Below, one piece after another: positions 16,492 through 64,000 of a stretch of 64,000 nucleotides of DNA. The position numbers and the translations under genes were made by a program. The stretch is from Amphiscolops sp. MND2022 (lineage: Eukaryota), in contig OZ076419.1 of NCBI GenBank assembly GCA_964187785.1, positions 9,362,001-9,426,000 of the forward strand, read 5' to 3'. The notes below the pieces were generated by a model. That model was not told the DNA's origin and ran no database searches. It saw only the letters and a list, made by a program, of their open reading frames with translations. The number at the start of each line of letters is the position of its first letter. The stretch's first letter is position 1.

Positions 16492-16665
16492 CCCTAGTTG
16501 AAAAAATTCACATCTTTTGCAAAATTCTTACAAAAACTCTTGTAAGAAAATGCATTATTTGACACTAACTCTTACAAGATTCTTGCAAAATTTGCGATTT
16601 TCAGCTGAAAATGGTACAAAAAATGCATAAACCTTACAAAACTCTTACAAAATTTGCATTGTTCC
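16492..16665 (+). repeat. Fragment of a CCCTAG-ended MITE-like interspersed repeat
   Basis: Near-identical to 46159-46325; rich in TTCTTACAA / TTGTAAGAA motifs. Confidence 0.7.
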
Positions 16666-28435: not shown

Positions 28436-29815
28436 TGTTAGACGTTATTTTCATAAAAATATGGTGATTTTAGACGTTATTCCCAAAAAAGTGATTTCAG
28501 GCGTTACTCCTCAAAAATAATGAATTTAGACGTTATTCTATGAACAAACGGTGATTTCAGACGTTATTCCAGTAGAATACGGTGTTCTTAGATCTTATTC
28601 TACCAAAAAATAATTTTAGACGTTATTCCTCAAAAATACGGTGATTTTAGACGTTATTCCCAAAAAAGTGATTTCAGGCGTTACTCCTTAAAAATAATGA
28701 ATTTAGACGTTATTCTATGAACAAACGGTTATTTCAGACGTTATTCCATTAGAATACGGTGTTTTTAGATCTCATTCTACCAAAATACAGTGATTTTAGA
28801 CGTTATTCCACAAAAATACGGTGATTTTAGACGTTATTCCCAAAAAAGTGATTTCAGGCGTTATTCCTCAAAAATATTGAATTTAGACGTTATTCTATGA
28901 ACAAACGGTTATTTCAGACGTTATTCCAGTAGAATACGGTGTTCTTAGATCTTATTCTACCAAAAAATAATTTTAGACGTTATTCCTCAAAAATACGGTG
29001 ATTTTAGACGTTATTCCCAAAAAAGTGATTTCAGGCGTTACTCCTTAAAAATAATGAATTTAGACTTTATTCTATGAACAAACGGTTATTTCAGACGTTA
29101 TTTCATTAGAATACGGTGTTTTTAGATCTCATTCTACCAAAATACAAAGATTTTAGACGTTATTCCACAAAAATACGGTGATTTTAGACGTTATTCCCAA
29201 AAAAGTGATTTCAGGCGTTATTCCTCAAAAATATTGAATTTAGACATTATTCTATCAAAAAACTTTTATTAAAGACGTTATTCCAGTAGAATACGGTGTT
29301 TTTAGATGTTATTCTACCAAAATAAAGTGATTTTAGACGTTATTCCTCAAAAATACGGTGATTTTAGACGTTTTTCCCAAAAAAGTGATTTTAGGCATTA
29401 TTCCTCAAAAATAATGAATTTAGACGTTATTCTATCAACAAACTGTTATTTCAGACGTTATTCCAGTAGATTACGGTGTTTTTAGATCTTATTCTACCAA
29501 AATACAGTGATTTTAGACGTTATTCCACAAAAATACGGTGATTTTAGACGTTATTCCCAAAAAAGTGATTTCAGGCGTTATTCCTCAAAAATATTGAATT
29601 TAGACGTTATTCTATCAAAAAACGGTTATTATTCCAGTAGAATACGGTGTTTTTAGATGTTATTCTACCAAAATAAAGTGATTTTAGACGTTATTCCACA
29701 AAAATACGGTGATTTTAGAGGTTATTCCTAAAAAAGTGATTTTAGGCGTTATTCCTCAAAAATAGTGAATTTAGACCTTTTTTCACCAAAAAACGGTTAT
29801 TTTGGATCTTATTCC
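28436..29815 (+). repeat. 30-bp minisatellite with a 6-mer (177-180 bp) higher-order repeat
   Basis: Unit GATTTTAGACGTTATTC-N-AAAAATACGGT. The variant TCCCAAAAAAGTG recurs at 28481, 28658, 28838, 29015, 29195, 29375 and 29555. Confidence 0.95.
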
Positions 29816-29829
29816 AACAAAAATATGAA

Positions 29830-29940: not shown

Positions 29941-30048
29941 AAATCTAACCTAAAAATTAAACACAAAGTCCTTTTTTCAAGCGGCTTCAGGAAACGCGGT
30001 ACCAAAAAGCGTCCTTGGTGCTAGCCGGGTCATTAATGTTACCCTGAT

Positions 30049-31806
30049 TGTCGCAGGCTGCCGCTTGCGATGGGACACGAATCACAACGACTACCAACGA
30101 GCAAGAAGCCGTACCAGGCACTTTACCCACATTTTAGGAGAATTATTCAAAACTTTCAGTAAAACTCACTGTTGTTTTATTACATTCATTATGTATTCGG
30201 ATTTTGGTTTTATACCGCAAAATGAATATTAGTCTGATTAATACCCGTGTTAGAATTCAAACGGTGATGATTATGTTTATATGATGAATTGTTTAGCAGT
30301 GACGTAATGTAATAAAGGCAAGTGTAAAGCTTAACGGATACGAGTTCAAGTGAACAAAACTCCAATTCCGGAGACGTCACTTGAGCTCATTCCGTCAGCC
30401 AATCATAACGCTCTATCCTGCTGTGCATTATACTGTCATATTTGTTTGGCCGTATACGGCCACTTGACGCTATACCTTATTTTGTAAGCGGACCAAAGGT
30501 AAATGGCCGGATTAGGCCATTCAAACTATTAGCTTATGTAATTGTTTAATTTGAGTATGCATGTTATTTAAAGTCATGTAGGATTATATTTGTATTTAGA
30601 AGGCGCTAATGGGGCTATTTAAACCCAATTGATGTAGTTGTGACCACCAGTCATGAAACTCTAAATACTAGTCCAGTGGACTAAACCGGTCACTTTAATT
30701 GGCTGGTACCTTTGTCAAATGGCCGAATTGGGCCACGCTCACCTTTTATTAGTGCATATAATTAGAGTTGCTACCTGATGAATTAGCCTGCGTGTGCAGG
30801 CACGTGCCTTAGATACCTCACATACCTGTTGACACAAATATTACTTGGAAGTGTCTGAACATGTATTTGCCTTGATGTTAATTGTTACGGGAATGCGGAC
30901 TAAACCGTCCCTCGTACTTTGAAGCTATCATGAGTATGTAATTGAGTACATTCTTCAGGAATTCTTCCGACCCTAAATTCCTGAATCACTTTGATGCAAT
31001 AGCTATTTTTCAATCCTCGTAAAATCTCATGATCCTTTAAAATATGTAAACATTTCAATAATATGTGGAAAATGTGAGTGTCATGCCTCAGGAGGTATAT
31101 ATATACACCCCCCTCCTGAGGGGACACAATTTGCTTTCTTTTCATAACGTTCAGTTCATTAATATTACCAGTTTTCCGAACTAATTCAATATTAACCTCG
31201 GACTTTCTTTCTAAATGCCTACTACTAGGAAACAGAAGAAAGCAAGGAAATCTAGAGAAGCAGAAATGCTATCAGACATTGAGAATTTGGATATTATGCT
31301 CGGAGGAAACCACTTTGATAGAAATGAGAGAAGTGAAAGTGTGAGTAGTAATCAGGCCGGTAGGCCAGAAAGCTTATTTGGAGATGAATTTGGAGATGAG
31401 AATGAGAATGAGTTCCCAAACCCGGGAAATAATGGACCTAGCCCAAATACCGAATTAGGCCAAAATTCAATCAGAGAGAGTTCAAGTGTTGAGATCAATA
31501 GACTGTCGAGTGAGTTAAATTCCCGTATATCTCGAGAGATGGATGAAATGATGAATAGCGTCAGTGTTCAGATTCAAAGGGCCATAAATGAGGCAATCAG
31601 TAGTCAAATTTTGCCTCAAATCCAAAATGCAGTTATGGCCGGGTCGGGACAGTTGACCAAAGAGAGATGGAACGTTCCGGCTGAGAGACCAGAAGGATAT
31701 TCCGAAGTGCTGCAAAACTTAGAACCTAGGAACAATTCTAAGAGTAAGCAGGCCAATGACCGTCTCAAAGTTGGATTCACAAGCACGAATTCTCGTGCTT
31801 ACGACA
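30049..31806 (+). repeat. 5' LTR of element A (1758 bp)
   Basis: Matches 43957-45716 with roughly a dozen substitutions and one 2-bp TA indel (by eye, ~99%). Confidence 0.95.
31086..31130 (+). promoter_or_regulatory. Candidate LTR core promoter: TATA-like run inside a 10-bp stem, followed by conserved GGACACAATT
   Basis: CCTCAGGAGG-TATATATATACACCCC-CCTCCTGAGG. The CCTGAG..GGACACAATT motif is also in the B LTRs and the solo LTR, about 85-100 nt before the gag ATG. Confidence 0.5.
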
Positions 31807-31818
31807 TGGTGACAGGAG
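31807..31818 (+). promoter_or_regulatory. Primer-binding site TGGTGACAGGAG
   Basis: Immediately follows the LTR end ACGACA; identical in B (62703-62714, minus strand). The priming tRNA cannot be identified without the host tRNA set. Confidence 0.85.
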
Positions 31819-32925
31819 AAAACGAATCTCCAATCGAAGTTCCTGAGTTTCTCACGGGACGAATGCCATCCACCAGTCATCTCAACAGATCAAATGATGA
31901 CCTTCCCCTGCTCGACACGACGATCCCGGCGCAAAAACGACCCGCTCTGGCACCAGAACAAGACCCGATCAACAGGCTAGCTGACGTCTTGACAAGTATG
32001 CAGAATCGCCCGACAGCCCAGCAACTCACAATCCGCCCAGTCAACTCAAACACTATGACGTTTGACGGCAAAAGTGAGAAGTTCGAGCTGTTTGAAGATT
32101 TATTCCATACGATGATCAAGATGCAGCCTGACATGACGGAACAAATGAAAATTAATCATTTTCATTCCTTGCTGAGAAAGAATGCACTCCAAACATTCAG
32201 AAACATCAGCACTGCAAATAGACAAACTCTTGAGGACGTACTCGTTATTTTCAGACGAAAATACGTCAAACCTGAATCACAGGCAACTGCCAAACATAAA
32301 TGGCACCGCGATCCTTCGATCCTAACACGACCAAATTGCCAGATTTTCTTGAGGAGCTCAATCAAGGAGCAGAAAAGGCCCTTGGAGACAATGCTCAGAA
32401 AATGATTGACAGTCTCCTATATGCCAAACTGCCACCAAAGCTCAAAAGATCAGTAAACATGGCTAGACTTGAGAATGGCTCGTACGATGAAATTGTCGCT
32501 CATCTAGAAAGAGAACTAGAATTGAATGCACTTGAAGAATCAGAAGACCTACCCATGGCGTCAATGACATCATCGGTCACGAAACCAAAAACTGTTCCTT
32601 CTAATACACAAATAAGTGATATTACGTGCAATTATTGTAAGGAAAAGGGCCACATGGTCAAAGATTGTGAAAAATTAAAAAAGAAAAAGGAAAAAGATGC
32701 CCAACAAGGCAAGACGACTCAGAAGAAGACCTATCCTAAATGTGGTACTTGTGGCAAGACGAACCATCCGGAGGAGAGATGTTGGCAAGGGGCAGGTGCG
32801 CACCTTAAACTTAAACGCACCAGACCAGAAGACTCGTCGGACAATGACCCCGACTCCAAAACCTTAAAATCGAACTACAGACCAGCATCTTCCAACAGCC
32901 AATCCTCATCAAGTAAAGATGAGTC

Positions 32926-32935
32926 AAAAAACTAG
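32926..32935 (+). promoter_or_regulatory. Programmed -1 ribosomal frameshift site A_AAA_AAC at the gag stop
   Basis: TCA AAA AAC TAG. The -1 frame (CTA at 32932) is open and in frame with the pol ATG at 33034. The same heptamer plus TAA is present in B (61588-61597). Confidence 0.85.
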
Positions 32936-33033
32936 CTTCGCCACGACTCCACTATGACCAACTAGTCTCTGTCCGACAATACATCAAATCGGACCCTCCA
33001 ACTAAAAACTTTCATAACTATCAGCAACAATTA

Positions 33034-36000
33034 ATGGGCTATCCTTCTGTTGTCTGGCAGCAGCAGATGGAAAAAGCTACCATTATTACTTACAATAATA
33101 CCCATTTGTTCCAGAAACCAATTCCTGTATGGGATCCTGATTACACATCTGCTTTCAATAGCCGATTCAGGCCCATTCCCTTGGTAGACGATTACAACCC
33201 TACCTACATAGACCCCGATTATGGACGAGATCCCTATTGGGACACGGAACTCTACAACCAAGATCTGCTACAATTCCAATACGTCATTGATGATATCGAA
33301 CTCTACAATAAATTAGCCCATGAAAATCCTCCAATCACCCACAACAAGAAAACTAGAGCATTGATTGAAACCTGGCAAATGAATGATGGCACAAGCCATC
33401 CGGTGTTCCCAAATCCCCTGGGGACCGAGACTACCGAAAACATGGAAGAAACAGTCCCACAGTCGCTATTAGATGAAAGTCAGTTCCAAAACGTTCTTAT
33501 TACCAGAGATGGTGAACCGGACTGCATACCCCTGTCCACCAACATAAATCTGAAATGCAAGAAACGCATGCTATATTTCCCCATGGATTTTGGGGAATTG
33601 ACCATAGACGGACTTATCGACACTGGTGCATTATCCAGTGCAATCCCAGAGATGGACCTCCGGAAAATCAGACTCTTATCGCCACAATCAGTAATCCGGG
33701 AAGGTCCGCCTCCAAACTTCCAGATAATGGTCGCAAATGGGCAACTAGAGACTCCCAAGAGTACAATAGAGCTCAAATTCGAAGTTGGTGACATAGAGTT
33801 CCATGAAATTTTTATAGTAATGGAACACTTGACAGGACCGATTATAGGACTGATGTTTCCACAGAGAAATCATACAGTACTGGACATGAGACAAGGAATA
33901 CTGAACTTTCCGTTCTTTTCAATGCAGCTCAAAACAGCTGATCATAAATACTCGAACGTGCTAGAGCCAATTCTAAACCCTACTGAAATAACCATTCCGC
34001 CAAACGACAGAGTCCTGATTAGGACCAATTCCTTCTTATACCCTGAAAACACGGTCACAGGAATTTTGCAACCGAGCGACCTTCTCCATGAAGAAGGCGA
34101 CATCACATTCTGTCCAGCCTTGGTCACCTTGAATGACGGCAATATATTGATACCGGTGAATAACTTCACAGACCACCCTTACAAGCTCAAAAAGGGACTC
34201 CATATTGCTAGTTTTTCAGTCATGACGCCAGAACAAATGAAATATGTCAAACCGGTAGACCCGGCATCAACCTGGCATTTGTTGCAAAACGACCAAGAGC
34301 AAGCAGCCCATTACGTCAGTAGCCTGATCAAGATGAACAAAAATTCACAAAACTCCGAAAACTACTGGTTCCCAACTCCGGAAAATCCAGGGAATCCAGA
34401 AGAACACACTCCAATCCAGAAAAGAATCCTCCGCGAACTACAAGCCCTACAGGACCTAGAATCCCTTGATCCCACGAAAGACGAGGAATCTAGGGGAAAA
34501 TTCTTGGGAAATTTTGATTGGAAAGACTCCACCCTAATCCTTGAAGAGAAAGCCAAAATTGAAGAAATGCTAGTGGAATTTCACGACATTTTTGCGAGAC
34601 ACAGATTTGATATAGGCATGAATGAGGAATTCAAGGTGAAATTGACGCCTAAGGACGATTCCCCAGCCTATAGCCAAAGCCTCCCTGCGCCAATAAACTT
34701 GAAAGAGGACATATTAGTCGAATTAGCCATGCTCCATAAATATGGCATAATAACTACTTTACCGTTCTCGAAATACGCCAGCCCAATATTCGCGCAAAAG
34801 AAACCAAATGGGAAACTGAGACTTCTGGTTGACTTGAGAAAAATCAACAACCTAATCTCTGATGATTATATAAACAATAACCACCCAGTCAGTACCTTAG
34901 TTGATGCCGCTCAACACTTAGCGGGGAAAAAACTGTTCTGTAAATTAGACTGTTCACAGGCATACCACTGCCTGCCGATGGCTGACCAGCGATCAATTGA
35001 AATGTTGGCCTTCAATTTCGCCAGCCGCACATTTGCCTACAGACGATTGGCACAAGGCCTTAGTAGGGCGCTGTCCGCATTCTCCAGTTTCATGAGGGAA
35101 TACCTCGACAAAGTCATAAAAGCGGATCAGTGTGCCCAGTACGTGGACGATATCGGCATCGCAGCCAACGACGCTGACCATCTCATTGCTAACCTAAGAG
35201 CAACTTTCAAATGCATTCAGGAAGCAGGCCTTAAATTGACGATGCACAAGTGTCATTTTGGTGCCACAGAAATTGATTTCCTCGGACGAACGATTACTCC
35301 ACAAGGCGTCAAACCCCAACGGCAGAACGTTCAGAATTTTCTAGAAAAAACCAAATTTCCAAAGTCGAAAAAGGTTTTGCAAAGATATTTGGGTTTCCTG
35401 AACTACTACCGAAACTACGTCCCAAGACTGTCCGAACGCCTTGCTCCATTCTACAAGATGCTGAAAAGTGACGAAAAAGTCCTAGTATCAAGAGAATTGG
35501 TACAGCAATTTGAGGAAATCAACCGAGCTCTGGACAAATGTTGCGACTTAGCCTTACAACAACCCATTCCTAACAAGCAGATTGCACTCATGACAGATGC
35601 AAGTTTCGGAGCTGCAGGATACGCAGTACTCATTGAAGATGACCCGAGTCAGAAATTCACGTCAATCCGCAAATCATATGCACCGGTCGCTTATGGTTCA
35701 AAAACCTTCACCCCAGCCCAGATAAAGATGTCAATTTATGCAAAAGAATTTCTTGCGATTTATTTCGCATTCAAAGAATTTGGGCATATTTTTTGGGGAG
35801 CGCCGAAACCGGTCATAATTCTAACCGACAACAAAGCCGTAACAAGATTCTTTCAGACGAAAGTCGTACCCCCAGCTCTGTGGAATGCATGCGACTATGT
35901 AATTCAGGTCAATTTTGTCATTGCGCACATCCCAGGAGCACAGAATACGGCAGCGGATTACTTGTCCCGATTGGAAGCAGACCCAAAGGACAAATTAGTA

Positions 36001-38139
36001 ATGAAAATCCGAGAAGATGTACAAACGTTGCCAATAGAAATAAACGTCCAATCAGCAGGAGTCTCACAGGAAGAGCATATCTTCTACACCAACGACGACG
36101 ATGAGACTGAAGAACAATATTGGGCGAGAAAAGAAGCAATCAGGAAAAATCCTGTAATCGAAGACCCTACAGTTACAATACAAACTCTTTCCACTAATTT
36201 AGCCAAACAACAACCTGAAATACAAGTCCGATTGAGGAAAACAAACCAGATAATTATTAAGCAATCCAAGGATGCAGTATTACAACACTTGAAGGCGAAA
36301 CTCCTTCATGAAGACTACTCAGAAAACATACTGCAACAGGACGCTCGGTACAGGCATTATGCTAACAATCTGGAACGAATTGTCATCAAAGAAGACATCC
36401 TCACAAGGCAATATTTTGATGAAAAAGGGAATTTAAAGTACCACCAAATCCTTCTCCCGCAACATTTGCTGCAGGAATTACTCCAGTCCTTACACGGGAC
36501 AGCTCACAACCATCCGGGTATTTCAAAAATGCTGCAGGAGATCAGACAGAGGTATTACTACCCTAACATGGCGAAATATGTTAAAAAGTGGGTAGAAGGG
36601 TTCGAACAATGCGCAAAGGACAAACGAGTCCCAAATGCAACAATCACGCCCGAGCTACTTAACTTGCCGGAATGGGACCTTGGACCCGAAGACGCAATGC
36701 AAATTGACTTATTGCCGAACCTTCCCCCAAGTGGAGGATATGAAAATGTATTAACCGCGATTGATGTCTTTTCTCGATATTTGTTTGCATATCCGCTCAC
36801 AGATGCATCAGCGATCAATGTAGCCAAAGCACTCATTGATATTATGACCAAACATTCCTACTTACCGACGACGCTCATTACGGACAAAGGAACTGCCTTC
36901 ACTTCCACGATTATTGCAAAAATTACCCAAGTTTTAGGAATTACCCTAAAATGTGCAACGACAAAGCACCCGCAAACTATCGGGAAATTGGAGCGCACAC
37001 ATGCCTCATTGAAAACAAACTTGAAAATGGCATGTGGGGAATATCGCCGACAATGGCACAAATACTTGCCATTAGCAGTTCTGAACCACAATACTAGTTA
37101 TCATGCCAGTATCGGATGTGAACCGACAAGAGTGTTCCATGGAAGAAGCCCATACAACATCTTGGATCACAAGCTTGGAACAAATCCAAACGAGCAAATC
37201 CATCCGACTACTGAATTCGCAGAAGAAATCCAAAATCGGACAAAGCTCCTTATCGACAAGACGAAGCAAAACATCATGCAGTCATATATCAAATATAAGG
37301 AGTATTACGATCGAAAAGCCAAAGCCGCCCCACTCAAGGAGGGCGATTACTGTTTTGTATTACAGCCAAAAGCGGATCACCAAGGATCCAAAATTCCCTT
37401 CAGAGATTATCGATGGGTTGGACCATTCATAGTCCAGAAAGCTTTACCTAATGAGAACTACATCGTCCGCAGACTTAATACGAATAAAACGCAGATCTTG
37501 CATCGAATTCGTCTCAAAAAGTTCGTTCCTAATCAGCCGCTCGAGGACAATTTTCGAGAAGAGAGATTGCAGCCGGACGAAGACATAATCATTCCACAGG
37601 ACGACTTATACGTAATAACGTGGGACACAAATTTTGGCGAACAGCTAGCTACACGAGGCAGCGAGCCGATTCCGGCTAGCTTGACGAATGGCGAACGGCC
37701 GAACACGGCACAAGCGAATACAAGTGATGCAAGCGAGAATGAAAGTGATTACATAATCACGACTGATTGTCCGAATGACGTCAACGACGCACCACGCAGT
37801 AGAAATGAAGAAATGGAAAATGACGTCAGCAATGCTAATGAAGCTAATGAAGCAAATGAAAATGAAAACCCTGATTGGCCAAATCCGGCCGTTCCCCCAA
37901 AGAATCAAGAAAAATCTCTGCCGAATACGGCTGAAGGATTGAAAAATGACAAAAACTTTCCAGAAAGAAATTCGATCAATGAAAGCGATGCACAAAAGTC
38001 TCCAAAAAGGGGGGACGATATTATCGTGCCCGAAATATCAGAAAATGATGCTAGAAATGAAAGTCTGAGCCCTAGAGGAGGGAAATATAATCTCAGGCCC
38101 AATCCTAATCCAAACTATTCAGAAGACTTCAGATACTAA
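33034..38139 (+). CDS. pol: pol polyprotein (1701 aa from the first ATG; true start is the frameshift at 32932): protease, dUTPase-like insert, RT, RNase H, integrase
   Basis: LIDTGA (33619); YVDD (35140); LMTDAS RNase H; integrase H-x-H..C (one Cys replaced by Phe, EGFEQC); core QIDLL..AIDVFSRY..TDKGTAF..LER; GPF motif RWVGPFIV. Confidence 0.97.
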   Translation: MGYPSVVWQQQMEKATIITYNNTHLFQKPIPVWDPDYTSAFNSRFRPIPLVDDYNPTYIDPDYGRDPYWDTELYNQDLLQFQYVIDDIELYNKLAHENPPITHNKKTRALIETWQMNDGTSHPVFPNPLGTETTENMEETVPQSLLDESQFQNVLITRDGEPDCIPLSTNINLKCKKRMLYFPMDFGELTIDGLIDTGALSSAIPEMDLRKIRLLSPQSVIREGPPPNFQIMVANGQLETPKSTIELKFEVGDIEFHEIFIVMEHLTGPIIGLMFPQRNHTVLDMRQGILNFPFFSMQLKTADHKYSNVLEPILNPTEITIPPNDRVLIRTNSFLYPENTVTGILQPSDLLHEEGDITFCPALVTLNDGNILIPVNNFTDHPYKLKKGLHIASFSVMTPEQMKYVKPVDPASTWHLLQNDQEQAAHYVSSLIKMNKNSQNSENYWFPTPENPGNPEEHTPIQKRILRELQALQDLESLDPTKDEESRGKFLGNFDWKDSTLILEEKAKIEEMLVEFHDIFARHRFDIGMNEEFKVKLTPKDDSPAYSQSLPAPINLKEDILVELAMLHKYGIITTLPFSKYASPIFAQKKPNGKLRLLVDLRKINNLISDDYINNNHPVSTLVDAAQHLAGKKLFCKLDCSQAYHCLPMADQRSIEMLAFNFASRTFAYRRLAQGLSRALSAFSSFMREYLDKVIKADQCAQYVDDIGIAANDADHLIANLRATFKCIQEAGLKLTMHKCHFGATEIDFLGRTITPQGVKPQRQNVQNFLEKTKFPKSKKVLQRYLGFLNYYRNYVPRLSERLAPFYKMLKSDEKVLVSRELVQQFEEINRALDKCCDLALQQPIPNKQIALMTDASFGAAGYAVLIEDDPSQKFTSIRKSYAPVAYGSKTFTPAQIKMSIYAKEFLAIYFAFKEFGHIFWGAPKPVIILTDNKAVTRFFQTKVVPPALWNACDYVIQVNFVIAHIPGAQNTAADYLSRLEADPKDKLVMKIREDVQTLPIEINVQSAGVSQEEHIFYTNDDDETEEQYWARKEAIRKNPVIEDPTVTIQTLSTNLAKQQPEIQVRLRKTNQIIIKQSKDAVLQHLKAKLLHEDYSENILQQDARYRHYANNLERIVIKEDILTRQYFDEKGNLKYHQILLPQHLLQELLQSLHGTAHNHPGISKMLQEIRQRYYYPNMAKYVKKWVEGFEQCAKDKRVPNATITPELLNLPEWDLGPEDAMQIDLLPNLPPSGGYENVLTAIDVFSRYLFAYPLTDASAINVAKALIDIMTKHSYLPTTLITDKGTAFTSTIIAKITQVLGITLKCATTKHPQTIGKLERTHASLKTNLKMACGEYRRQWHKYLPLAVLNHNTSYHASIGCEPTRVFHGRSPYNILDHKLGTNPNEQIHPTTEFAEEIQNRTKLLIDKTKQNIMQSYIKYKEYYDRKAKAAPLKEGDYCFVLQPKADHQGSKIPFRDYRWVGPFIVQKALPNENYIVRRLNTNKTQILHRIRLKKFVPNQPLEDNFREERLQPDEDIIIPQDDLYVITWDTNFGEQLATRGSEPIPASLTNGERPNTAQANTSDASENESDYIITTDCPNDVNDAPRSRNEEMENDVSNANEANEANENENPDWPNPAVPPKNQEKSLPNTAEGLKNDKNFPERNSINESDAQKSPKRGDDIIVPEISENDARNESLSPRGGKYNLRPNPNPNYSEDFRY

Positions 38140-38366
38140 GAATTGAATTTTCCCGGAAATGGGAATTCTTTTCTTTTAGCTTTGTTTTTCCAAGCCCCTC
38201 TGAGAACTTCTTTTGATTAAATACTGGGGCATTCCAAAGGATCCCTAATAAAGAATAAATATGGGATCAAATCATCAAGAAAACAAAGTAGAAATATAAA
38301 TACGGCAATAAAACAGAAGAAATTAACAAGTTTACAACATGGAAGTACATAAATACATATGTACAT

Positions 38367-41300
38367 TTACTCATTAGAACTTGATTGGGATCGTCTACCC
38401 GCTGTTGGAGAACTGGAAAATCCAACAAGGCTGCTGCTCTATGAGCTGCTCTATCAAATGATCTATGAGCCCTAAAAACTCATCTCGATAAATGAACTCA
38501 GCATCAACGGTTACCCAAGAACGAAGCTGGAATGTATTGTAGAGCAACTCGAAGTGACGTAAAGCAGAAGCAGGTGGTTGTTTGAATAACACAACAGGAT
38601 CGAAAGCAGCAAGTCCTTTGATGATGTGGGTGTTGAGCCCAGAATGCTTGTGTAATCCATCCAAAAGGTGGCCTATATACTTGAGTCCGTCTGTGATGAA
38701 CTCCTTCTGAAGTTCTTTGGCAGTCTTTTGAATAGCAGCCGCTTCGCTCTTCTTGCCCGAATGCAACCCCTCTGCCCTCTGTTTGCAAACGTGAGGAACT
38801 TTACTGGACAATCTGAGCCTGGTAAGGAAGTCGTCTCCGTCCATAAGGGTCCCGTCTGCTGATTTGAAAGAGAGCAAATCGAACCAAGAACCTTCGGCAG
38901 AGATTGTGTCCGCAGTGAATGCTCGAGAACAAATCCGATGTATGAAGCGGCTGGTCTCTCCACATACATAGAATGAGGCATCGCGGCGTTGGGCCAAGTT
39001 GACAGAGAACTGGATACGTCTACAAATACAAAACCATGCCCAAAATGGGATACTACCTCAACTTCTACACCTGACAATAGGTATACTAACAATCGTTGAC
39101 CAGCTTGGAGAAGAAATCCAACTTGATGGTGAGAAACTCATCACAAATGAGTGACCACTCGAAACTTTGCACCTGCAACAAAGAAATCAACTCAATGGGC
39201 ATTTGGTTGTCAGACCAAAGATGATCCACTACGGGGATTTAGGGATACTGTACATAGTGGTGCTACATGACAATTAAAGCGACGCAATTACTTACTCTAC
39301 CCCTCACGCCTTGTCCTTGTTGTCGAGGTGCATGTATTGTCAAAGACCTCTGTACAGCCTTCCATTCACGAATTAGTTCCAGACAGAGGACTGGCAAAGT
39401 CAATAGGTTCAACTTGCAGGTTCGTATACCCTAAACAAGACCTATGGTGTACTTACTATATCAATATCACTGATCCATAGCCCTCCACAACCTGAACCCG
39501 ATCAATACCCTACAGAAACCCGGATCATGCCTGTTCAGGGAAGAAAGAAATCACTTACATAGGATAATTCGGGACTCCGCATCGCCCATTCCTCCCTGAG
39601 AGAGCCTCCTAGAGAGATGACAAGCCCCCTTAACACTGAAAAGAAATCAATGTGTCCGAAGATAGAGCGACTGGACTTATGCATCAGAGTCTCTAAGGAA
39701 AATTGGCTGAATTGGAAACAGGACTGGACTCCCTTTGAGAAGTATTCCGATTGATCAACCACACGGATAAAATCGGCGGGACACCCAGAACTGGCGACTA
39801 TGTCCACTTTAGGCGAAATTGAGGACAACAACCGAGCCAGGGATCCCAATTCCCCGTTTAGATTTGGAGAAGGTAGCCCACTCCGACAGATGAAGACCCT
39901 GCATAAGGTGTTTTCCTTCCAAAACCGGACTGACATGAAGCGATAACTGCCCACGTCCTCGAACTCGAGCCCAAGGCATTGCTCCTTCGTGATGTGATTG
40001 GCTATGTCACCCAGAGCGCAGTTGAAGAAGTGTTGGAAAATGACCTGAAAAGGACATAAGGGAAATCAACTCCTGGATGTGACATAACCGCCTAAAACGG
40101 CAGCTTAACGATATGATACTTACAGAGAATCGCTCTGCACTCCAGTCAAAGTCACATAGTGCAGCCTGAAAGTCCGTGTATGAACTGACCCTCGTCCATA
40201 GATTCCGGAGAAGATCGCGAATCAGGCGTGACCAAGGGATCAGTTCTGCCTTTGATGAAGTCGTCATAAAAGGGGAATCGCTCCCCTATGTCAACTAATT
40301 CAGCATGTATGAAGCAAGGCATTTCTTTGGCCAACTCGAGCCTGTTCATGATTCGACCGTCTCGCCCTCTGACCCTATGTTGAACTTTCCCTGTGACTGG
40401 GTCTACGCTTTTCAAGTATTCATAGCGCCAGCGCTGGTCCTTGCGCAGATGTTTCTCAGTTCGGTGGTGACGAAGAATTTCCCCCGGGCCTTTGGAACGT
40501 ATGGAGAATTTCTTTTTACATATATGGCACCATACCATATGTGAATTGTGTAGCGGGTCTGCAGGTCCTGAGATAAAAGACCGGGTCCACCCAATTGTTG
40601 AGAAAAACTCTTCTCTCATTGGCACTCCTCGTCTCTTCACCCTTTTCTTCTTCTGAGGTTGTTTCTTCTTAGAGCCTGTATGGGTCTTTTCAGCAATGGC
40701 GTGATCCCTTACTTGCGACAAAGTTTCATCGAGACAATTGGCATCACTGGTATCAGGATTTTCCAGAGATCGACTAGAAGGCCCCGGTACTTCACTCGGA
40801 TCCTTAAGCATGGAAGTTCCTGCTCTGGCAAAGTTTTGCTCAATTAAAGCTAACTCCCCTGCACTGTCCGATTCCTCATGAAAGGACGTGTCACCTGATT
40901 CGGTTCCTCCACTCATTTCTGCGTCAGTCTGAGAATCATAGCGGACTGGGGTAGTGCACCCTTCGGAGCCACTATCTCCACTACTTGAAGGATAAGGCGT
41001 TTGTGCGCGCCTGAAAGTTTTGAATTGATCAGTCCGTGACTTGGACGTCGCTGGGGCTCCTTTCACTGCCGATACAACCATATGCTCCATCGTGTTATAA
41101 GACAAACTCACAGTCTCATTGGTGAGCACCCTAAGGAGGTGGTACAGCTGCGGTTCAGTAAGTGTTATTACGGGGTGACCCTGCGGCAAAGTAATGGGCT
41201 TGGCTTCTCCAAAATACTGTTTGAAAGTGGCTCTACTCCTTCCAGACAGGTTATGTAACTTGGGACCAGTGACCCCAAGCTGGGAGGAGGAAGTCCCAGG

Positions 41301-42182
41301 GACCTGTGGGTCCTGGATGCCAAAATCGGATTCCTGCGTCTCTTCTGCAACTGAGTCCATGCTTCTCAATGTGTCCCGGTAACCATACAAATCTATCTGT
41401 TGATCACTACTCTCGTTCAACTGGTCCAACTCACCATAGTCAGAGACGTATGTTGTCGCTGTGACTGTTCCAGGCAACGGGGGGGCATCGTGGACAGAGG
41501 AACTGTTGTCTTCGTCTTGCTGGAGGAATGACACCTTACTTGTCTCATTGGGAACTCCTTCAACAGGCAGCAATTCCGGCAAGGTTGCATCAGGAGGCCC
41601 AGCAATCTCAAGCCCTGATTCCAATTGAGACAAACTAACTGTGGGGACTGTGCAACTGGCGTGGGGTATTGGAGTGCTAGACCGGGTGATTGGCATGTCT
41701 GCAGACAACTCAGTGCCGTGGGAGGCCTTCACTGCGCCCTCTCGCCTAACTTCTACTTTTTCTTCCACTATCTCGTTAGACAACTGCGTTTTCTGCATAT
41801 GTTCGACCATCTCGTCTGCATACGCCGTAACGTCAATGTTACTGTCTACGCTATGTGGGGAGATGACCTCAGCAACTTGATCCTGGCCCGAACGTTCAGA
41901 TGATTGGGAATTGGAATTGAGTCCTTGAGACTCAACTGATGGACCTACTAGTGGGGGTAGGATCCTGGTAATCTGGGAAGAAGAAACCAATGGAGGAAAT
42001 GGAGGGGGAGAAGGAACCAAGTTTCGAGTTGTACCCGGAACGGGAACGGAATACATGGATGAAATAACTTCGGTGGGATTGGCGGAAGCAGGGTTGGTTG
42101 GTGTATGAGAATCATCTAAATTCTGGCGATCTAAACACAAAGAGATGAAATTTGGCGGTATGCTTCCTCGATAGAAATCCAT
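38367..42182 (-). pseudogene. Antisense spliced accessory gene of element A (disordered N-terminus, NLS, BED-like zinc finger, hAT-transposase-like body), damaged by deletions
   Basis: ORFs 40152-42242, 40007-40267, 39535-39954 and 38395-38997 are collinear and homologous with B ORFs at 52205-56349. Conserved start MDF(Y/F)xGSxPPNFI; introns at 40045-40123 and 39173-39295. Confidence 0.8.
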
Positions 42183-43253
42183 TTGCCGCGTCAGAAGACT
42201 TCCGGAAGCAGTCTTGAAAATTTGAATGAAACGTGCTATCACGTGTTCTCTGATGGAAACAGGAAGCGCTTAATGAACGAAATTTAGCCCTGATCAAGCC
42301 AAGTTAGTTCAAAATAAAAATCCAGACCAACCTGTATTCGAAGACATCCTGCTGAGATAATTGAATCCACTGAGGATCTACCCAAATTCGGATGAGAAAA
42401 TTGGGGATGATGGCCGGACTGGGACAACAGATGGGGAGGAGGCTCGGATGGCTACAGAGAATGAAGGAGAAGTCCACAACTGTTCTGGAGCCCCAGGTAG
42501 ATAAAAGGACTAGCAAAAGGTATAAGAATCGAGTATAAAGGAATTCGAATGGTAATGGTAGTACAAATGAAATAAATAAGCAATGGAAGAAATGAAAGTT
42601 AGAGATCGTGGCTGAAGGTTTACCAGACTAATTTTATTTGATTATCTACATATTTAAATCTGTACACGGAGTCTGCCAGCGAAATATACAGGGCGTATCT
42701 CGCTATTTACAACCTTGTTACAATTAGTGGCCGATTATGGCCGTTTACCCCAACTTATGTTGCCGTTTTGTTCAGTTTTCCTAGTTACCTTAGTTAGATT
42801 TTCGCCATTTTAGTTATTCAAACTTATTATTTTCCGCCATCTTTATTATTCATTTTTCCAAATTTATCGAAGCTCAAATTTGATTGGCTGAAGCCATTTC
42901 AGTGAGTTTCATCCGACAAGTGCCGTTAATTGCTATCAAGCTTGATGTTGATTACCCACTTGAAGTGGAATTATTTGTTGTTGTCAACTTAACACCTCTT
43001 CGCATACTCACTTGAGAGAGTGAGAAAGGGGGTTCCATTCCGAATTTCAAAGGACAAATAAGCCGCTGAGATATTCCATTCTAGAAAGTTTACGACGGAT
43101 CAGGGCGATTGACCATGGTCTCTCCCGCCGAAATGGAACTCCGGGAAAATAGCCTGAATTGGCCTGAAGAAAATTTTGACAAATTCATTCAACTTTGAAT
43201 CCTGCAAGCAACAAGTCGCTCTGCGAATCAACAAAATTGCAAAAAAGATAATA

Positions 43254-44045
43254 ATGGCTAAATTTAACTTAGCAAGAAAGCTTTTCGACTTAGAAGAATC
43301 GGACTCAGAAGCCTCCGTAAATTCAGTCATCTACCTATCGAGTGACGAGGAGGAAGACACCTCATCTACCTCATGGGATTCCGATTGGTCCACGGACACC
43401 GAGGCTATCATAGAGAGAATCGAGAGGGAAGTTAAGTCAAGCCCAATTTTGATCGCAGGTCGCAAGATGACTGTGGAGGGGCAGGCTACAGAATCAGCAG
43501 CTGGACCAAGTAATCTTCAAATGCGGCCGCCTTCGATTCCGAAATTGGGATTCAAACACTTTGACGAGAAACTCCTGTATGCGCCGATGAGGAAGGCAGA
43601 AAGAACCCGGATAGAACTTTGCAACACAATTCTACCAGTGTTGGAATCGCCGTTGTCTCCGCCCGAACATGAGAGAGGGCCGTCCCAAGACGTGCTCATG
43701 GAACAGCCAGTTAGCACCAGCTTCCACGCATCTTACCACATCCAACAAGTACAGCCGTATTCGGATCTTAGTAAACAGTTGGGCCGTGGATGTATGGTCT
43801 GTGGAAGATCAGTGGACGAAATTAAACAAGAGAAGGTGAATTGGTACATGAGCAGATCTACAACGCGCAGTGAACCGGCATACATAACGGACTTGAGGAG
43901 AGAGGCCTACGAAAATGGTCTACATGCCGGAAGTCTTCTTTTCCTAGCACCCGCAGTGTCGCAGGCTGCCGCTTGCGATGGGACACGAATCAATACGACT
44001 ACCAACGAGCAAGAAGCCGTACCAGGCACTTTACCCACATTTTAG
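43254..44045 (+). CDS. ORF3 of element A (~263 aa, unknown function), last ~29 codons inside U3
   Basis: Intact frame with a homologue intact in B (50348-51133). Acidic VIYLSSDEEED and WDSDWSTDTE blocks, plus FHASYHI..CMVC. Confidence 0.8.
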   Translation: MAKFNLARKLFDLEESDSEASVNSVIYLSSDEEEDTSSTSWDSDWSTDTEAIIERIEREVKSSPILIAGRKMTVEGQATESAAGPSNLQMRPPSIPKLGFKHFDEKLLYAPMRKAERTRIELCNTILPVLESPLSPPEHERGPSQDVLMEQPVSTSFHASYHIQQVQPYSDLSKQLGRGCMVCGRSVDEIKQEKVNWYMSRSTTRSEPAYITDLRREAYENGLHAGSLLFLAPAVSQAAACDGTRINTTTNEQEAVPGTLPTF

Positions 44046-45716
44046 GAGAATTATTCAAAACTTTCAGTAAAACTCACTGTTGTTTTATTACATTCATTAT
44101 GTATTCGGATTATGGTTTTATACCGCAAAATGAATATTAGTCTGATTAATACCCGTGTTAGAATTCAAACGGTGATGATTATGTTTATATGATGAATTGT
44201 TTAGCAGTGACGTAATGTAATAAAGGCAAGTGTAAAGCTTAACGGAAACGAGTTCAAGTGAACAAAACTCCAATTCCGGAGACGTCACTTGAGCTCATTC
44301 CGTCAGCCAATCAGAACGCTCTATCCTGCTGTGCATTATACTGTCATATTTGTTTGGCCGCATACGGCCACTTGACGCTATACCTTATTTTGTAAGCGGA
44401 CCAAAGGTAAATGGCCGGATTAGGCCATTCCAACTATTAGCTTATGTAATTGTTTAATTTGAGTATGCATGTTATTTAAAGTCATGTAGGATTGTATTTG
44501 TATTTAGAAGGCGCTAATGGGGCTATTTAAACCCAATTGATGTAGTTGTGACCACCAGTCATGAAACTCTAAATACTAGTCCAGTGGACTAAACCGGTCA
44601 CTTTAATTGGCTGGTACCTTTGTCAAATGGCCGAATTGGGCCACGCTCACCTTTTATTAGTGCATATAATTAGAGTTGCTACCTGATGAATTAGCCTGCG
44701 TGTGCAGGCACGTGCCTTAGATACCTCACATACCTGTTGACACAAATATTACTTTGAAGTGTCTGAACATGTATTTGCCTTGATGTTAATTGTTACGGGA
44801 ATGCGGACTAAACCGTCCCCCGTACTTTGAAGCTATCATGAGTATGTAATTGAGTACATTCTTCAGGAATTCTTCCGACCCTAAATTCCTGAATCACTTT
44901 GATGCAATAGCTATTTTTCAATCCTCGTAAAATCTCATGATCCTTTAAAATATGTAAACATTTCAATAATATGTGGAAAATGTGAGTGTCATGCCTCAGG
45001 AGGTATATATATATACACCCCCCTCCTGAGGGGACACAATTTGCTTTCTTTTCATAACGTTCAGTTCATTAATATTACCAGTTTTCCGAACTAATTCAAT
45101 ATTAACCTCGGACTTTCTTTCTAAATGCCTACTACTAGGAAACAGAAGAAAGCAAGGAAATCTAGAGAAGCAGAAATGCTATCAGACATTGAGAATTTGG
45201 ATATTATGCTCGGAGGAAACCACTTTGATAGAAATGAGAGAAGTGAAAGTGTGAATAGTAATCAGGCCGGTAGGCCAGAAAGCTTATTTGGAGATGAATT
45301 TGGAGATGAGAATGAGAATGAGTTCCCAAACCCGGGAAATAATGGACCTAGCCCAAATACCGAATTAGGCCAAAATTCAATCAGAGAGAGTTCAAGTGTT
45401 GAGATCAATAGACTGTCGAGTGAGTTAAATTCCCGTATATCTCGAGAGATGGATGAAATGATGAATAGCGTCAGTGTTCAGATTCAAAGGGCCATAAATG
45501 AGGCAATCAGTAGTCAAATTTTGCCTCAAATCCAAAATGCAGTTATGGCCGGGTCGGGACAGTTGACCAAAGAGAGATGGAACGTTCCGGCTGAGAGACC
45601 AGAAGGATATTCCGAAGTGCTGCAAAACTTAGAACCTAGGAACAATTCTAAGAGTAAGCAGGCCAATGACCGTCTCAAAGACGGATTCACAAGCACGAAT
45701 TCTCGTGCTTACGACA
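43957..45716 (+). repeat. 3' LTR of element A (1760 bp), including a 204-aa gag-N-terminus ORF (45125-45739) that runs into the flank
   Basis: Starts TGTCGCAGGCTGCC and ends ACGACA, followed by TSD CTGAT. Confidence 0.95.
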
Positions 45717-45769
45717 CTGATATAGATACAGACTTCTAATTCAGGTGTTATTCAAAAAAGACACAAAAT

Positions 45770-59500: not shown

Positions 59501-61597
59501 TTTGATGACTTTGTCGAGGTATTCACTCATGAAGCTCGAAAACGCGGACAGAGCCCGGCTAAGGCCTTGTGCCAAACGTCTGTTAGCAAATGTGCGACTG
59601 GCGAAGTTAAAGGCCAACATTTCAATCGATCGTTGGTCAGCCATCGGTAGGCAATAGTATGCCTGTGAGCAGTCTAATTTACAGAACAGTTTTTTGCCCG
59701 CTAAATGTTGGGCGGCGTCGACTAAAGTACTGACGGGGTGATTATTGTTTATGTAATCATCGGATATGAGGTTGTTGATTTTTCTCAAGTCAACCAAGAG
59801 TCTGAGTTTTCCGTTCAGTTTCTTTTGTGCGATTATTGGACTCGCATATTTCGAGAACGGTAGGGTGGTGATGATGCCATATTTGTGTAACATGGCCAGT
59901 TCGACTAAGATGTCCTCCTTCAGGTTGATAGGGGCTGGGAGGCTCTGACTATAGGCTGGGGAATTGTCCTTGGGTGTCAATTTCACCTTGAATTCTTCGT
60001 TCATGCCTATGTCAAATCTGTGTCGTGCAAATATATCATGGAATTCCACTTGTAAATCCTCAATTTTCTCCATTTCTTCAGAAGTAAGGGTGGAATCTTT
60101 CCAATCAAAGTTTTCTGGGAAATTTGCACGAGATTCTTCATCTTTGGTGGGATCGAGTGTCTCCAAGTCCTGTAAGGCCTGTAGTTTGCGTAGAATTCTT
60201 TTCTGGATGGGTGTGTGTTTCTCAGGGTTTCCAGGGTTTTCTGGGGTTGGGAACCAGTAATTTACGGAATTTTGAGGATTTCTGTTCGTCTTGATGAGGC
60301 TGCTGACATAATGGGCTGCCTGCTCTTGGTCATTTTGCGAAAAGTGCCAGGTTAAACCGGGTCTACCGGTTTGCCATATTTCATCTGTTCTGGCGTCATG
60401 ACTGAGAAATTGGCAATATGAAGTCCCTTTTCAAGTATATAAGGGTGTTCTGTGAATTTATTCATAGGTATCGATATACTGCCATCATTTAGAGTGACCA
60501 AGGCTGGACAAAATGTGATGTCGCTTTCTTCATGTAGGAGGTCGCTCGGTTGCAAAATCCCAGTAACCGCATTCTCAGGATAGAGTAAGGAATTGGTCCC
60601 AATTAGGACTCTATCGTTTGGCGGAATTGTTATCTCAGTGGGGTTGAGAATTGGTTCTAGTACGTTAGAATATTTGTGGTCAGCTGTTTAAAGCTGCATT
60701 GAAAAGAACGGGGAATTCAGGATTCCTCGTCTCATGTCCAAGACTGTATGATTTCTCTGAAGGAACATTAGTCCAATGATCGGTCCTGTCAAATGTTCCA
60801 TTACTATGAAGATTTCATGGAACTCAATGTCACCAACTTCGCATTTGAGCTCTATGGTACTCTTGGGAGTTTCCAGTTGCCCATTAGCGACCATGATTTG
60901 GAAGTTCGGAGGCGGACCCTCTCGGATAACATATTGTGGAGATAGAAGACGGATTTTCCGGAGGTCCATTTCAGGAATTGCACTGAAGAGGGCCCCAGTG
61001 TCTATGAGTCCAAAAATGGTCAGTTCCCCAATGTCCATTGGGAAATAAAGCATGCGTTTATCGCATTTGAGGTTTTTGTTGGTTGACAGGGGTATACAGT
61101 CTGGTTCACCGTCTTTGGTTATGAGTTCATTCTGGAATTGTTTCTCGTCTAACAGTGATTGTGGTATGGATTCGGTAGTGTTTTCAGGATTCTCGGTTCC
61201 CATGGGGTTTGAGAACACTGGGTGGTGTTGAATTGCCATCATCCTTGAATTGCAAGAGGTCCTGGTTATAAATGTCGGTGTCCCAATAAGGATCTCTGCC
61301 ATAGCCTGGGTCGATGTATGTTGGATTGTAATCATCGATCAGGGGAATGGGCCTGAACCGGGTTGTGAAGGTAGTTGTATAATCAGGATCCCAAAGAGGA
61401 ATTCGTTTCTGGAACAAATAGGTGTTATTGTAGGTAATGATGGTAGCTTTTTCCATCTGTTGCTGCCAGATAACAGAGGGATAGCCCATCAATTGCTGAT
61501 TGTATTGATGGAAGGTTTGCGTTGGAGTGTCCGATCTGATGTATTGTCGGACAGATATTAGTTCGTTGTATTGGATTCGTAGCGAAGTTAGTTTTTT
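56573..61597 (-). pseudogene. pol: pol of element B, multiply frameshifted
   Basis: Fragments with LIDTGA, QYVDD, LMTDAS, EGCEEC, QIDLLP..TDKGTAF, RWVGPFIV and the terminal YNLRPNPNPNYSEDFRY. Confidence 0.93.
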
Positions 61598-63300
61598 GAC
61601 TCATCGTTGGAAGATGAGGATTGGGAGCTTGATGATGTCTGCTTGTTCTGAGGTTTCTGAGCCTTTGGGTTGGGCTTATTGTCAGTTGAGTCCTCAGGCC
61701 TAGTGCGTTTGGGTTTAAGATGCGCACCTGCACCTTGCCAACATCTTTCTTCCGGCTGGTTCTTTTTGCCACAAGTGCCTCACCCCGGATATGTTTTCTG
61801 CTGAGTCGATTTGCCTTGTTGGGCATCTTTCTCTTTTTTCTTTTTCAATTTCTCACAGTCCCTGACCATGTGGCCTTTTTCCTTGCAGTAATTGCAAGTG
61901 ATGTCCGACATTTGCCCAGTGGTGAGAAGGGTTTTGGGCTTGGCGGATGAGGAAGTCATTGTTGCCATTGGTAGGTCGTCTGACTCCTCAAGGGCGTTAA
62001 GCTCCAGTTCTCTCTCCAAATGAGCGACTATCTCATCGTATGAGCTATTTTCCAATCTGGCCATATTGGCGGATCGTTTCAATTTTGGTGGCAGTTTTGC
62101 GTAACGCAAGCTGTCAATCATTTTCTGTGCATGGTCGCCAAACGCCTTTTCTGCCCCTTGATTTAATTCTTCAAGGAAATCAGGCAGTTTCATTGTATTG
62201 GGATCAAAGACAAGACGGTGCCATTTATGTTTGGCGGTTGTCTGTGATTCAGGTTTGACGTATTTTCGTCGGAAAATGACTAGTACGTCTTCGAGGGTTT
62301 GGCGATTTGTCGAAATGATGTTTTTGAACGTTTGGAGAGCATTTTTCCTCAATAGTGTATTAAAATGGTTAATTTTCTTTTGCTCAGTCATTTTTGGCTG
62401 CATCTTGATCATAGTGTGGAAGAGATCTTCGAACAGCTCAAATTTCTCACTTTTGCAATCGAAAGTCATGGTATTGGAGTTGACAGGGCGTATTGTGAGT
62501 TGTTGAGCTGTAGGTCCATTCTGCATCGTAGTCAAGACGTCGGCCAATCTGGTAATGGGGTCAGGATCTGCAGCTGTAGCGATTCTCTCATGCGCTGGGA
62601 TCGTCGTGTCAAGGTTGATGTCCTCATAGTACTGATTGAGATGAGTTCTTGATGGGATACGTCCTGTGAGAAACTCAGGAACCTGATTGGGAGATTCGTT
62701 GTCTCCTGTCACCATGTCATGAACATTTAGATCAGGGTAATCATTGTTTAACTCATTCTCATCCTGTTCATTTCTCAAGTTGTTCTTTGCGTTTAGGTTT
62801 CGCTGAACTTCGGAACTTAGTTCCGGTCTCTCAGACGGAACGTCCCATCCTTTTCTGGTCCCGTGTCCCGATCCGGCCATAATAACATTTTGGATCTGAG
62901 GAAGCACCTGAGTGCATATTGCATCACTTATGGCCCTTTGTATCTGGTCACTTAGCGAATTCATCATCTCGTCCATTCCTCGTGAAATGCGGGAATTTAA
63001 TTCGCTTGACAACATATTTATCTCAGCACTAGAATTACCAGTAACTGAATTGCAATCACATTCGGTATTTGTCCTAGAGTTAACATTTCTCTGGTTTCCA
63101 CCTATGTTCCCATCCTCATTTTCGGATTCATTGCTTGCAAAGCTTCTAGGTCTCCTGAGCAAATTACTATTCAAACTGCCTTCTCTTTCTCTAGTGTTAA
63201 AATGGTTCTCACCTAGCATGATATCTAAATTCTCGATGTCAGATAACATTTCCAGTCCTCTTTACTTCCTTGCCTTCTTCTGTTTTCTAGTGGTTGGCAT
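61588..63300 (-). pseudogene. gag: gag of element B with one premature stop (TGT>TGA at the second zinc knuckle, ~61780)
   Basis: ATG at 63300 (MPTTRKQKKARK) in frame with ORF 61780-63249. The frame continues past the TGA to ESKN-TAA at 61588. Confidence 0.9.
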
Positions 63301-64000
63301 TGAAACAGTTCCGAATTAAATAATAAATTAAACAACTCGGAAAACAACAGCGGAGCCGTTTGTTAATCAAACTTTACTAGTAGCGTCTCAAATGAATTGT
63401 GTCCCCCTCAGGCCCAGTATCAGTATATATACCCATGAGGGGGTGACATTCACATACTTCACATACTTCTAGTCAAGATTTATATCATATGAATTTGGTA
63501 CTCATGACACATTCCCATATTCTACATACATTGGGAATAATACAAGTAATATGTTGAAAGGTATTTAACATATACCGCAACTTCAAACAACACATCTAAT
63601 GAATTAGTATCATTCAAGTATCAACAAATATTAATATCCAAATATGGAATTTTGACATACCCAACTTCAGAGAGTATGCCGGCCTGCGCCGCCACACAAG
63701 CGAAATTGAGTTTGTTAGCGGATAAAAATACATGTAGTGTATAAAGATCACATCAACACTTGTCCTATTCGTCACAATGGCTTTAAATGTAGCATCTTCA
63801 AAATAGAACCAGATTTGACCAAATCCAAATCATTATGTTAAACTGCCAAGCAGCGCAAAAGTGGTTATTTAGCGCTGGGAACATAGCTATAATAGTATCA
63901 ATCAATTGCTAGCGTAATTAGTACATCATCATCATCTTTACTTGAAATGGCCGAAACCGTCCATTTGACCAAAGCACAGATTAAAACAATCATCTTTAAG
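62715..64000 (-). repeat. 5' LTR of element B (partial)
   Basis: Matches 48712-49998; followed on the minus strand by PBS TGGTGACAGGAG. Confidence 0.93.

Follow-up and report, generated by a model that had tools for sequence, protein, structure and literature searches.

Ty3/gypsy retrotransposons of Amphiscolops sp. carry a predicted multi-intron antisense gene of probable hAT transposase ancestry

The 64,000-nucleotide (nt) stretch of Amphiscolops sp. MND2022 DNA analysed here (contig OZ076419.1, positions 9,362,001 to 9,426,000; referred to as the window) contains two long terminal repeat (LTR) retrotransposons, element A on the plus strand and element B on the minus strand. Both are assigned to the Ty3/gypsy elements on the basis of their LTR ends and the order of their pol domains. 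In each element, the region between pol and the 3' LTR holds a gene of about 4 kb in antisense orientation, followed by an additional sense open reading frame (ORF). A structure of five coding exons and four GT-AG introns is strongly supported for this antisense gene, with splicing predicted from the DNA sequence. Likewise strongly supported are a product of about 1,270-1,330 amino acids (aa) under purifying selection and the copying of the gene along with the element; the gene is predicted to form a transcription unit of its own. The best overall explanation, in which we have reasonable confidence, is a spliced, hAT-derived antisense accessory gene whose product would act as a nuclear DNA-binding regulator of the element. 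Further copies were collected from the 1.07-Gb genome assembly.

In element A, all exons of the antisense gene lie on the minus strand. Exon 1 (40124..42182) starts with the ATG at 42182 and has a net deletion of 56 nt near 40216. It is followed by intron 1 (40045..40123, 79 nt, phase 0, TCT/GTAAGT..TTTCAG/GTC), exon 2 (39559..40044, 486 nt), which corresponds to the RNase H-like core of a modelled homologue, and intron 2 (39431..39558, 128 nt, phase 0). Exon 3 (39296..39430, 135 nt), intron 3 (39173..39295, 123 nt, phase 0, AGA/GTAAGT..TTGCAG/GTG), exon 4 (39091..39172, 82 nt) and intron 4 (39020..39090, 71 nt, phase 1) precede exon 5 (38367..39019), which has hAT dimerisation-like features and ends at the stop codon TAA (38369-38367). 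Exon 5 comprises 386 codons in most copies; element A lacks about 0.5 kb of it near 38455. The antisense gene of element B, which is broken, lies on the plus strand (52205..56349) with introns at 54137-54205, 54694-54794, 54930-55036 and 55118-55187.

Introns 1 and 3 of this model had already been proposed as two phase-0 introns in the first-pass annotation of the window, and their coordinates and splice sites were confirmed in both elements. The same annotation had listed a third, 28-nt candidate at about 39531-39558 in element A. This candidate was rejected because the resulting 235-nt segment is out of frame and contains six stops. The true partner of the donor at 39558 is the acceptor at 39431, 128 nt away; with this acceptor, the following 135-nt exon is open and conserved in all subfamilies, and the equivalent intron of element B is the second one listed above. 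The phase-1 intron 4, found in both elements, had been overlooked.

The exon-intron structure is conserved across an alignment of 23 copies, namely elements A and B, one sister of A and 20 loci chosen partly for their long open frames. Exon 2 measures 486 nt in 18 of the 23 copies, exon 3 135 nt in all of them, and exon 4 82 nt in 21. The introns vary in length (69-229, 90-128, 82-126 and 66-71 nt for introns 1 to 4). Among the 80 introns of the 20 chosen, mostly intact copies, the donor is GT in 79, position +5 is G in 74, and all 80 end in AG. Donors mostly read GTRAGT or GTTAGT and acceptors have a T-rich tract followed by AG, in agreement with U2-type introns (GT..AG termini, extended donor consensus, pyrimidine-rich acceptor). 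Intron lengths are spread over the three frames (30, 25 and 25 introns by length modulo 3). Removal of the introns gives a frame that is open over 755 codons in 17 of the 20 cores. Splice sites were also examined out of sample at 17 further diverged loci, with the exon lengths preset and the positions anchored by tblastn; these loci represent subfamilies whose pol is 57-90% identical and whose exon 5 is down to about 30% identical. All 68 predicted introns of these loci are bounded by GT..AG; an eighteenth locus (L121) without an anchor for exon 4 is not included in this count. The same holds for 60 of 60 introns in 15 copies of the A family. Some introns have grown with their splice sites kept, namely intron 1 to 229 nt at L068 and L078 and intron 4 to 156 nt at L115 and L124. 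Intron 1 of L061 and L062 measures 75 nt, keeps the frame and has no stops; its retention would add 25 aa.

The exons are more conserved than the introns. Mean identity among 12 representatives is 0.64 in exons and 0.35 in intron interiors, and exon-2 identity by codon position is 0.70, 0.79 and 0.41. Over 66 pairs, the mean proportions of synonymous (pS) and nonsynonymous (pN) differences are 0.79 and 0.22, respectively, i.e. synonymous sites are saturated; the nine unsaturated pairs give a median dN/dS of 0.046 (range 0.029-0.154). A comparison of exon dN/dS with intron divergence had been proposed in the first-pass annotation; the exon ratio is about 0.05. Strong purifying selection on the predicted antisense product is strongly supported by these substitution patterns. 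A search of 1.84 billion representative proteins retrieved 740 homologous proteins at E<=0.001. Seven distant homologues were aligned across the intron-1 site: in five of them, exon 1 runs directly into exon 2 without extra residues, one reads through an in-frame intron and one is ambiguous. The same five of seven end just beyond the intron-2 donor. The homologues without intron 1, which include P0124, P0213 and P0229, confirm that the intron-1 join corresponds to contiguous protein and show that a lineage has gained or lost intron 1. It had been proposed before that the introns rejoin conserved protein, and this agrees with the distant homologues that read across the intron-1 join and with the conserved frame restored by intron removal.

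The introns are found in independent insertions. Of ten sisters of element A, both ends were located in seven; six of these are flanked by exact 5-bp target duplications, all different, and one by a duplication with a single mismatch. All sister copies retain the four introns. Since independent insertions with distinct duplications keep the introns, these must pass through retrotransposition, as the first-pass annotation had suggested for introns in antisense orientation. Read on the element's own strand, the intron segments begin with CT and end with AC in 79 of 80 cases, and the introns probably survive repeated RNA copying because they face backwards. The antisense gene and pol adjoin convergently in all 38 fetched stretches, which had been selected for having the gene. 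Identities of pol and of the antisense gene correlate across 20 copies (Spearman 0.81, Mantel p 0.001), and a deep clade of seven copies is recovered alike in the two trees.

Many single insertions are broken. The spliced frame of element A meets its first stop after 676 codons, and the antisense gene of element B contains frameshifts and stops. Sister copies with an unbroken spliced frame were found, as had been proposed as a check: the frame is 1,268-1,290 aa long in 9 of 21 copies (a biased pick); among the 15 closest copies of the A family, it is 1,325-1,326 aa long in two, the other 13 being broken. The earlier claim that the element maintains a spliced gene of more than 1000 aa therefore stands for the family, given the fixed exon lengths, the splice sites, the selection and the intact sisters, and fails for the two copies in the window. 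A motif of the intron-retaining intron-3 acceptor matches 594 times in the genome, compared with 0 matches for the reversed control. Degenerate exact motifs for the spliced junctions 3 and 1, which fit mainly the closer subfamilies, gave 0 genome matches each; at these two probed junctions, copies that lack the intron precisely were not encountered. An apparent intron-1-less locus on C8 was rejected as a case of intron loss. This locus (L109, G000:C8:59338000-59347900) is a partial tandem duplicate of the antisense gene within one element, in which an imprecise 76-nt deletion in the second copy spans the intron-1 acceptor.

The predicted antisense protein begins with an N-terminal region of about 480-510 aa that is rich in Ser, Thr, Pro, Glu and Asp and contains short conserved blocks; an MD..GS.P start is present at 19 of 21 loci. 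The remainder of exon 1 encodes a basic patch, a CxxC..H..H zinc finger and a helical part. The CxxC of the zinc finger is present in 19-20 of 20 copies and its two His residues in all 20; Pfam returned no BED match for it. Several high-copy subfamilies have long open frames of 847-910 aa over the zinc-finger region.

The origin and action of the gene may be pictured as follows. Most simply, a hAT transposon would have landed backwards in an ancestral gypsy element. The genomic RNA of the element would then carry the gene reversed, with introns that read CT..AC and hence are invisible to the spliceosome, and reverse transcription would copy the unspliced introns intact. A separate antisense pre-mRNA, transcribed from an internal promoter, would be spliced and translated into a nuclear protein, whose long, acidic and disordered N-terminus could recruit host factors and thereby switch on or de-silence the element's own promoters. 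A function as a nuclear, sequence-specific DNA-binding protein that serves as activator or anti-silencing factor of these promoters is put forward tentatively, at slightly less than even odds, from the features of the sequence. As new insertions decay freely, selection would act when a lineage is copied, and since the lineages are nevertheless strongly constrained, the protein is expected to help the element copy itself. The full scenario is possible and decidedly more speculative: an intron-bearing hAT inserted backwards and was domesticated by the retrotransposon rather than by the host, the dead transposase became a needed, subfamily-specific activator or anti-silencer, and the exon-intron structure was kept through hundreds of rounds of reverse transcription, with intron 1 gained or lost.

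The main rival to a regulatory role is help with integration. The same gene with the same ancestry would then encode a protein that anchors the pre-integration complex to chromatin, guides it there or shields the ends of the complementary DNA. A transposase-like fold with DNA-binding and dimerisation parts would suit such a task, as would the constant position of the gene next to pol in 38 of 38 stretches. The antisense product, however, diverges much faster than integrase (identities of 0.37-0.93 versus 0.66-1.00), the seven target duplications have no obvious motif in common, and the long acidic N-terminus would fit a transcription factor better. We consider an integration role unlikely and continue with a regulator of the element's promoters as the preferred function.

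Concerning its ancestry, a descent of the C-terminal ~750 aa from a hAT DNA transposase is moderately supported by structural modelling, and hAT ancestry of the antisense protein appears probable. The structure was modelled for a distant homologue (P0229) from outside the source genome that is about 28-37% identical (84 sequences, pLDDT 72). The model has an RNase H-like core, and Foldseek places Hermes transposase at ranks 1-12 (best E 3.1e-4). For exon 5, the ESM Atlas returned hAT-dimerisation clusters in 24 of 30 matches (score 0.93) and a FAM200/GTF2IRD2-like cluster at 0.92. In addition, a low-confidence model of exon 5 (pLDDT 40) yields Hermes residues 288-576 at rank 2 (Z 4.8) in the expected order. 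Alternatively, the spliced gene could be real and of non-hAT origin, having been captured from the host or encoding some other protein with an RNase H fold; its function would then have nothing to do with DNA binding. This would accord with every sequence-profile test against hAT being negative and with RNase H-like cores being common. Against it, two methods applied to two different parts of the protein indicate hAT in the right order, a third adds weak support, and a copy outside an element was not seen among the 38 stretches; such an origin is judged improbable, marginally more so than an integration role.

Several results weigh against the preferred explanation, most of them bearing on the hAT ancestry. 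The Foldseek TM-scores of the Hermes matches are only about 0.2. In VIA-align, the alignment with Hermes covers 140 residues (model 165-353, chain 135-378) and reaches Z 6.2, less than those with integrases and actin-fold proteins, which share the core alone. The shared-feature counts in the Atlas are 151 and 133, compared with 170 typical for members of the same family, and Foldseek found no match for the low-confidence exon-5 model. Pfam scans of the antisense exons detected no hAT family and nothing significant, PF05699 included. Compared with 346 ORFs from 45 hAT-bearing stretches of the same genome, HMMER found no significant match, and HHalign against the same-genome hAT ORFs gave probabilities of 0.4% and 0.1%; the lower value falls among those of shuffled sequences. 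Two weak tests among long database proteins uncovered no full-length spliced protein. Finally, a 160-column pol tree of the closer group is mostly unresolved, and some of its supported pairings differ from the antisense tree, which may reflect module swapping. A PDB sequence search of the antisense protein found nothing significant, the ESM Atlas had no usable match for the zinc-finger and exon-2 part, and a PF14291 scan had no match anywhere, its controls being silent too.

If it is of hAT origin, the protein has probably lost its catalytic function. The DDE triad, the CxxH motif and the conserved Trp were not found in 20 copies, with positions placed by eye. At about the position of the first catalytic Asp, on the first beta strand, all 20 copies have an invariant Glu; a conserved Asp after the fourth strand, a conserved His and the final Glu of the C-terminal motif were not found in these copies. 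With no DDE set by motif reading, the protein should therefore not be classified as an active hAT transposase. The alternative that it remains active, as a transposase or nuclease opening a second, DNA-level route of movement, would have the invariant Glu at about the first catalytic acid in its favour, and is very unlikely given the other missing acidic residues and insertions that show LTR ends and 5-bp duplications. hAT insertions make 8-bp target duplications. Neither relic terminal inverted repeats nor an 8-bp duplication was noted around the gene, for which no dedicated search was made; the mobile unit has LTR ends. Elsewhere in the genome, open hAT transposase frames of 597-697 aa are present at five loci (L153, L154, L155, L160 and L161), and some of these elements may be recently active because some of the long-frame copies are near-identical. 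Hardly credible is the remaining alternative, that the breaks are decayed coding sequence, frameshift sites or linkers between small ORFs and not spliceosomal introns: although some subfamilies read intron 1 through in frame (847-aa frames), the GT-AG ends of 68 of 68 introns, the fixed exon lengths, the intron lengths in all three frames and the homologues that are missing precisely the intron-1 segment contradict it.

Candidate transcription signals flank the antisense gene on the minus strand of element A. A palindrome, CTTCCGGAAG, conserved across subfamilies, is located just 5' of the ATG (42199..42208). Further upstream lies a candidate 42-nt intron of the 5' untranslated region (UTR) at 42290..42331 (CAG/GTTGGT..AACTAAC..ATCAG) with a branch-point-like AACTAAC; its ends, CAG/GT and TGAT(C)AG, are near-conserved across 21 aligned upstream regions. 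In the closer group of copies, CCAAT and repeated AAAATGGCG motifs are found upstream of the ATG. A TGTA-rich conserved motif directly follows the stop codon (38345..38365), succeeded by T/GT-rich sequence, and is a candidate 3'-end signal. TGTAC occurs within about 10 nt after the stop in all 16 copies shown, again followed by T/GT-rich sequence, and TGTACATA immediately 3' of the stop in 13 of them. TGTACATA presumably resembles a Pumilio site or CFIm elements, and the conserved blocks upstream and downstream may represent ETS, YY1 and 3'-end elements. About 1 kb of conserved non-coding DNA between the extra sense ORF and the antisense gene is likely to be a divergent promoter.

The remaining layout of the two elements is as follows. 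On the plus strand, element A is bounded by a 5' LTR (30049..31806) with TG...CA ends and a 3' LTR (43957..45716) that are 98.98% identical, and by the target duplication CTGAT (30044-30048 and 45717-45721). Its gag (31215..32935, plus strand) encodes zinc knuckles, is split over two frames and matches the Pfam entries zf-CCHC and DUF1759, both under the curated cut-off. It starts about 590 nt inside the 5' LTR, so that the frame crosses the primer-binding region (31215-31830) and, because gag starts inside the LTR, a 204-codon gag fragment is present in the 3' LTR (45125-45739). The pol gene (32923..38139, plus strand) is an open frame of 1738 codons with the Pfam domain order protease, reverse transcriptase, RNase H and integrase. 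The database matches listed for pol, at least 120, are ENA proteins that carry no element name. Element B (48712..64000, minus strand) has LTR copies that are 97.9% identical over 1287 nt, its 5' LTR extending beyond the window, and its pol is about 80% identical to that of element A at the DNA level. The extra sense ORF is located at 43254..44045 (plus strand) in element A, encodes 264 aa from its Met and runs into the 3' LTR; its equivalent in element B lies at 50348-51181 (minus strand). It has an acidic N-terminus and a CxxC motif and is present in 35 of the 38 gene-bearing stretches, one being counted from an adjoining stretch. Pfam scans of this ORF assigned no significant family, with a weak zf-C2H2_12 match (E 0.23) in one copy. 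A polypurine tract is not obvious ahead of the 3' LTR of element A (43930-43957), where the segment codes for the extra sense ORF. Elsewhere in the window, positions 12872-13347 hold a degraded LTR/gag remnant of the same family, 70-76% identical, satellite arrays (repeat periods near 350, 450 and 180 bp) occupy 17047-23552, 26008-27118 and 28427-29823, and near-identical direct repeats are found at 6478-6778 and 10967-11267 (301 bp, 96.7%) and at 16489-16659 and 46156-46326 (171 bp, 97.7%).

Penelope-like elements are retroelements that keep spliceosomal introns; they belong to another class, and an antisense cargo gene does not account for their introns. With hAT transposases (Hermes; PDB 8edg, 8sjd and 4d1q) and their dead derivatives of the GTF2IRD2/FAM200 kind, the antisense protein would share a zinc finger, a helical part, an RNase H-like core, a large helical insertion and a dimerisation-like end in the same order. 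It differs by the missing DDE triad (motif reading), an extra N-terminus of about 480 aa, the lack of a visible 8-bp duplication and its status as retrotransposon cargo. In terms of layout, a close likeness is brtn, which Zhao et al. 2011 reportedly located between pol and the 3' LTR and described as spliced. This gene is an additional antisense gene in Boty-like Ty3/gypsy elements of Botrytis cinerea (PMID 21802103, PMC8365987, PMC4227169). Both are extra antisense genes in a gypsy element; brtn has a fungal chromovirus context. The gene described here has five predicted exons, encodes about 1,300 aa with a probable hAT-like fold, is accompanied by a further sense ORF and is present in hundreds of copies.

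Antisense ORFs between pol and the 3' LTR are also described, lineage-wide, for the plant elements Retand, Grande and RIRE2, and the antisense gene is similarly located in the 38 of 38 stretches. The Grande antisense ORF has its own promoter and a nuclear product, most Retand antisense ORFs encode a Transposase_28 (PF04195) domain with predicted DNA binding, and a regulatory role has been proposed; introns are mentioned in neither text, and the 2020 review calls for looking for spliced antisense transcripts (PMC11963269, PMC7264820). Pfam scans of the antisense exons gave no match to PF04195. In deltaretroviruses, hbz and aph-2/3/4 are spliced antisense mRNAs for nuclear transcriptional regulators, which start in the 3' LTR and encode small bZIP-type products (PMC10186651). 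The likeness lies in spliced antisense genes of an LTR retroelement, with splicing predicted in the present case; unlike those genes, the gypsy antisense gene starts about 1.8 kb inside the element and its protein is unrelated. For rotifer and planarian elements, extra ORFs are reported, and no spliced antisense gene is described in the sections available (PMC5408684, PMC6431247). In the literature searched, which did not extend to subscription journals, Repbase or supplements (that of PMC11963269 may bear on introns of the plant ORFs), we found no gypsy element with an antisense gene that has several introns or is derived from a hAT transposon. The antisense accessory layout as such is thus already known; new are the size of about 1,300 aa, the four conserved introns, the hundreds of copies and the probable origin from a DNA transposon.

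Standard repeat annotation would break the antisense gene into unnamed fragments. Read as a spliced unit, it allows the rule that introns are purged by reverse transcription to be tested in nature, since hundreds of copies have kept four introns across subfamilies with saturated synonymous sites. If the hAT ancestry is true, a retrotransposon has domesticated a DNA-transposon gene. What antisense accessory genes do in LTR retrotransposons is treated as an open question in the plant literature (PMC7264820, PMC11963269). Here, many diverged subfamilies within one genome encode a large, conserved protein that probably has a DNA-binding domain, so that its binding specificity could be matched to the promoters of the elements that carry it.

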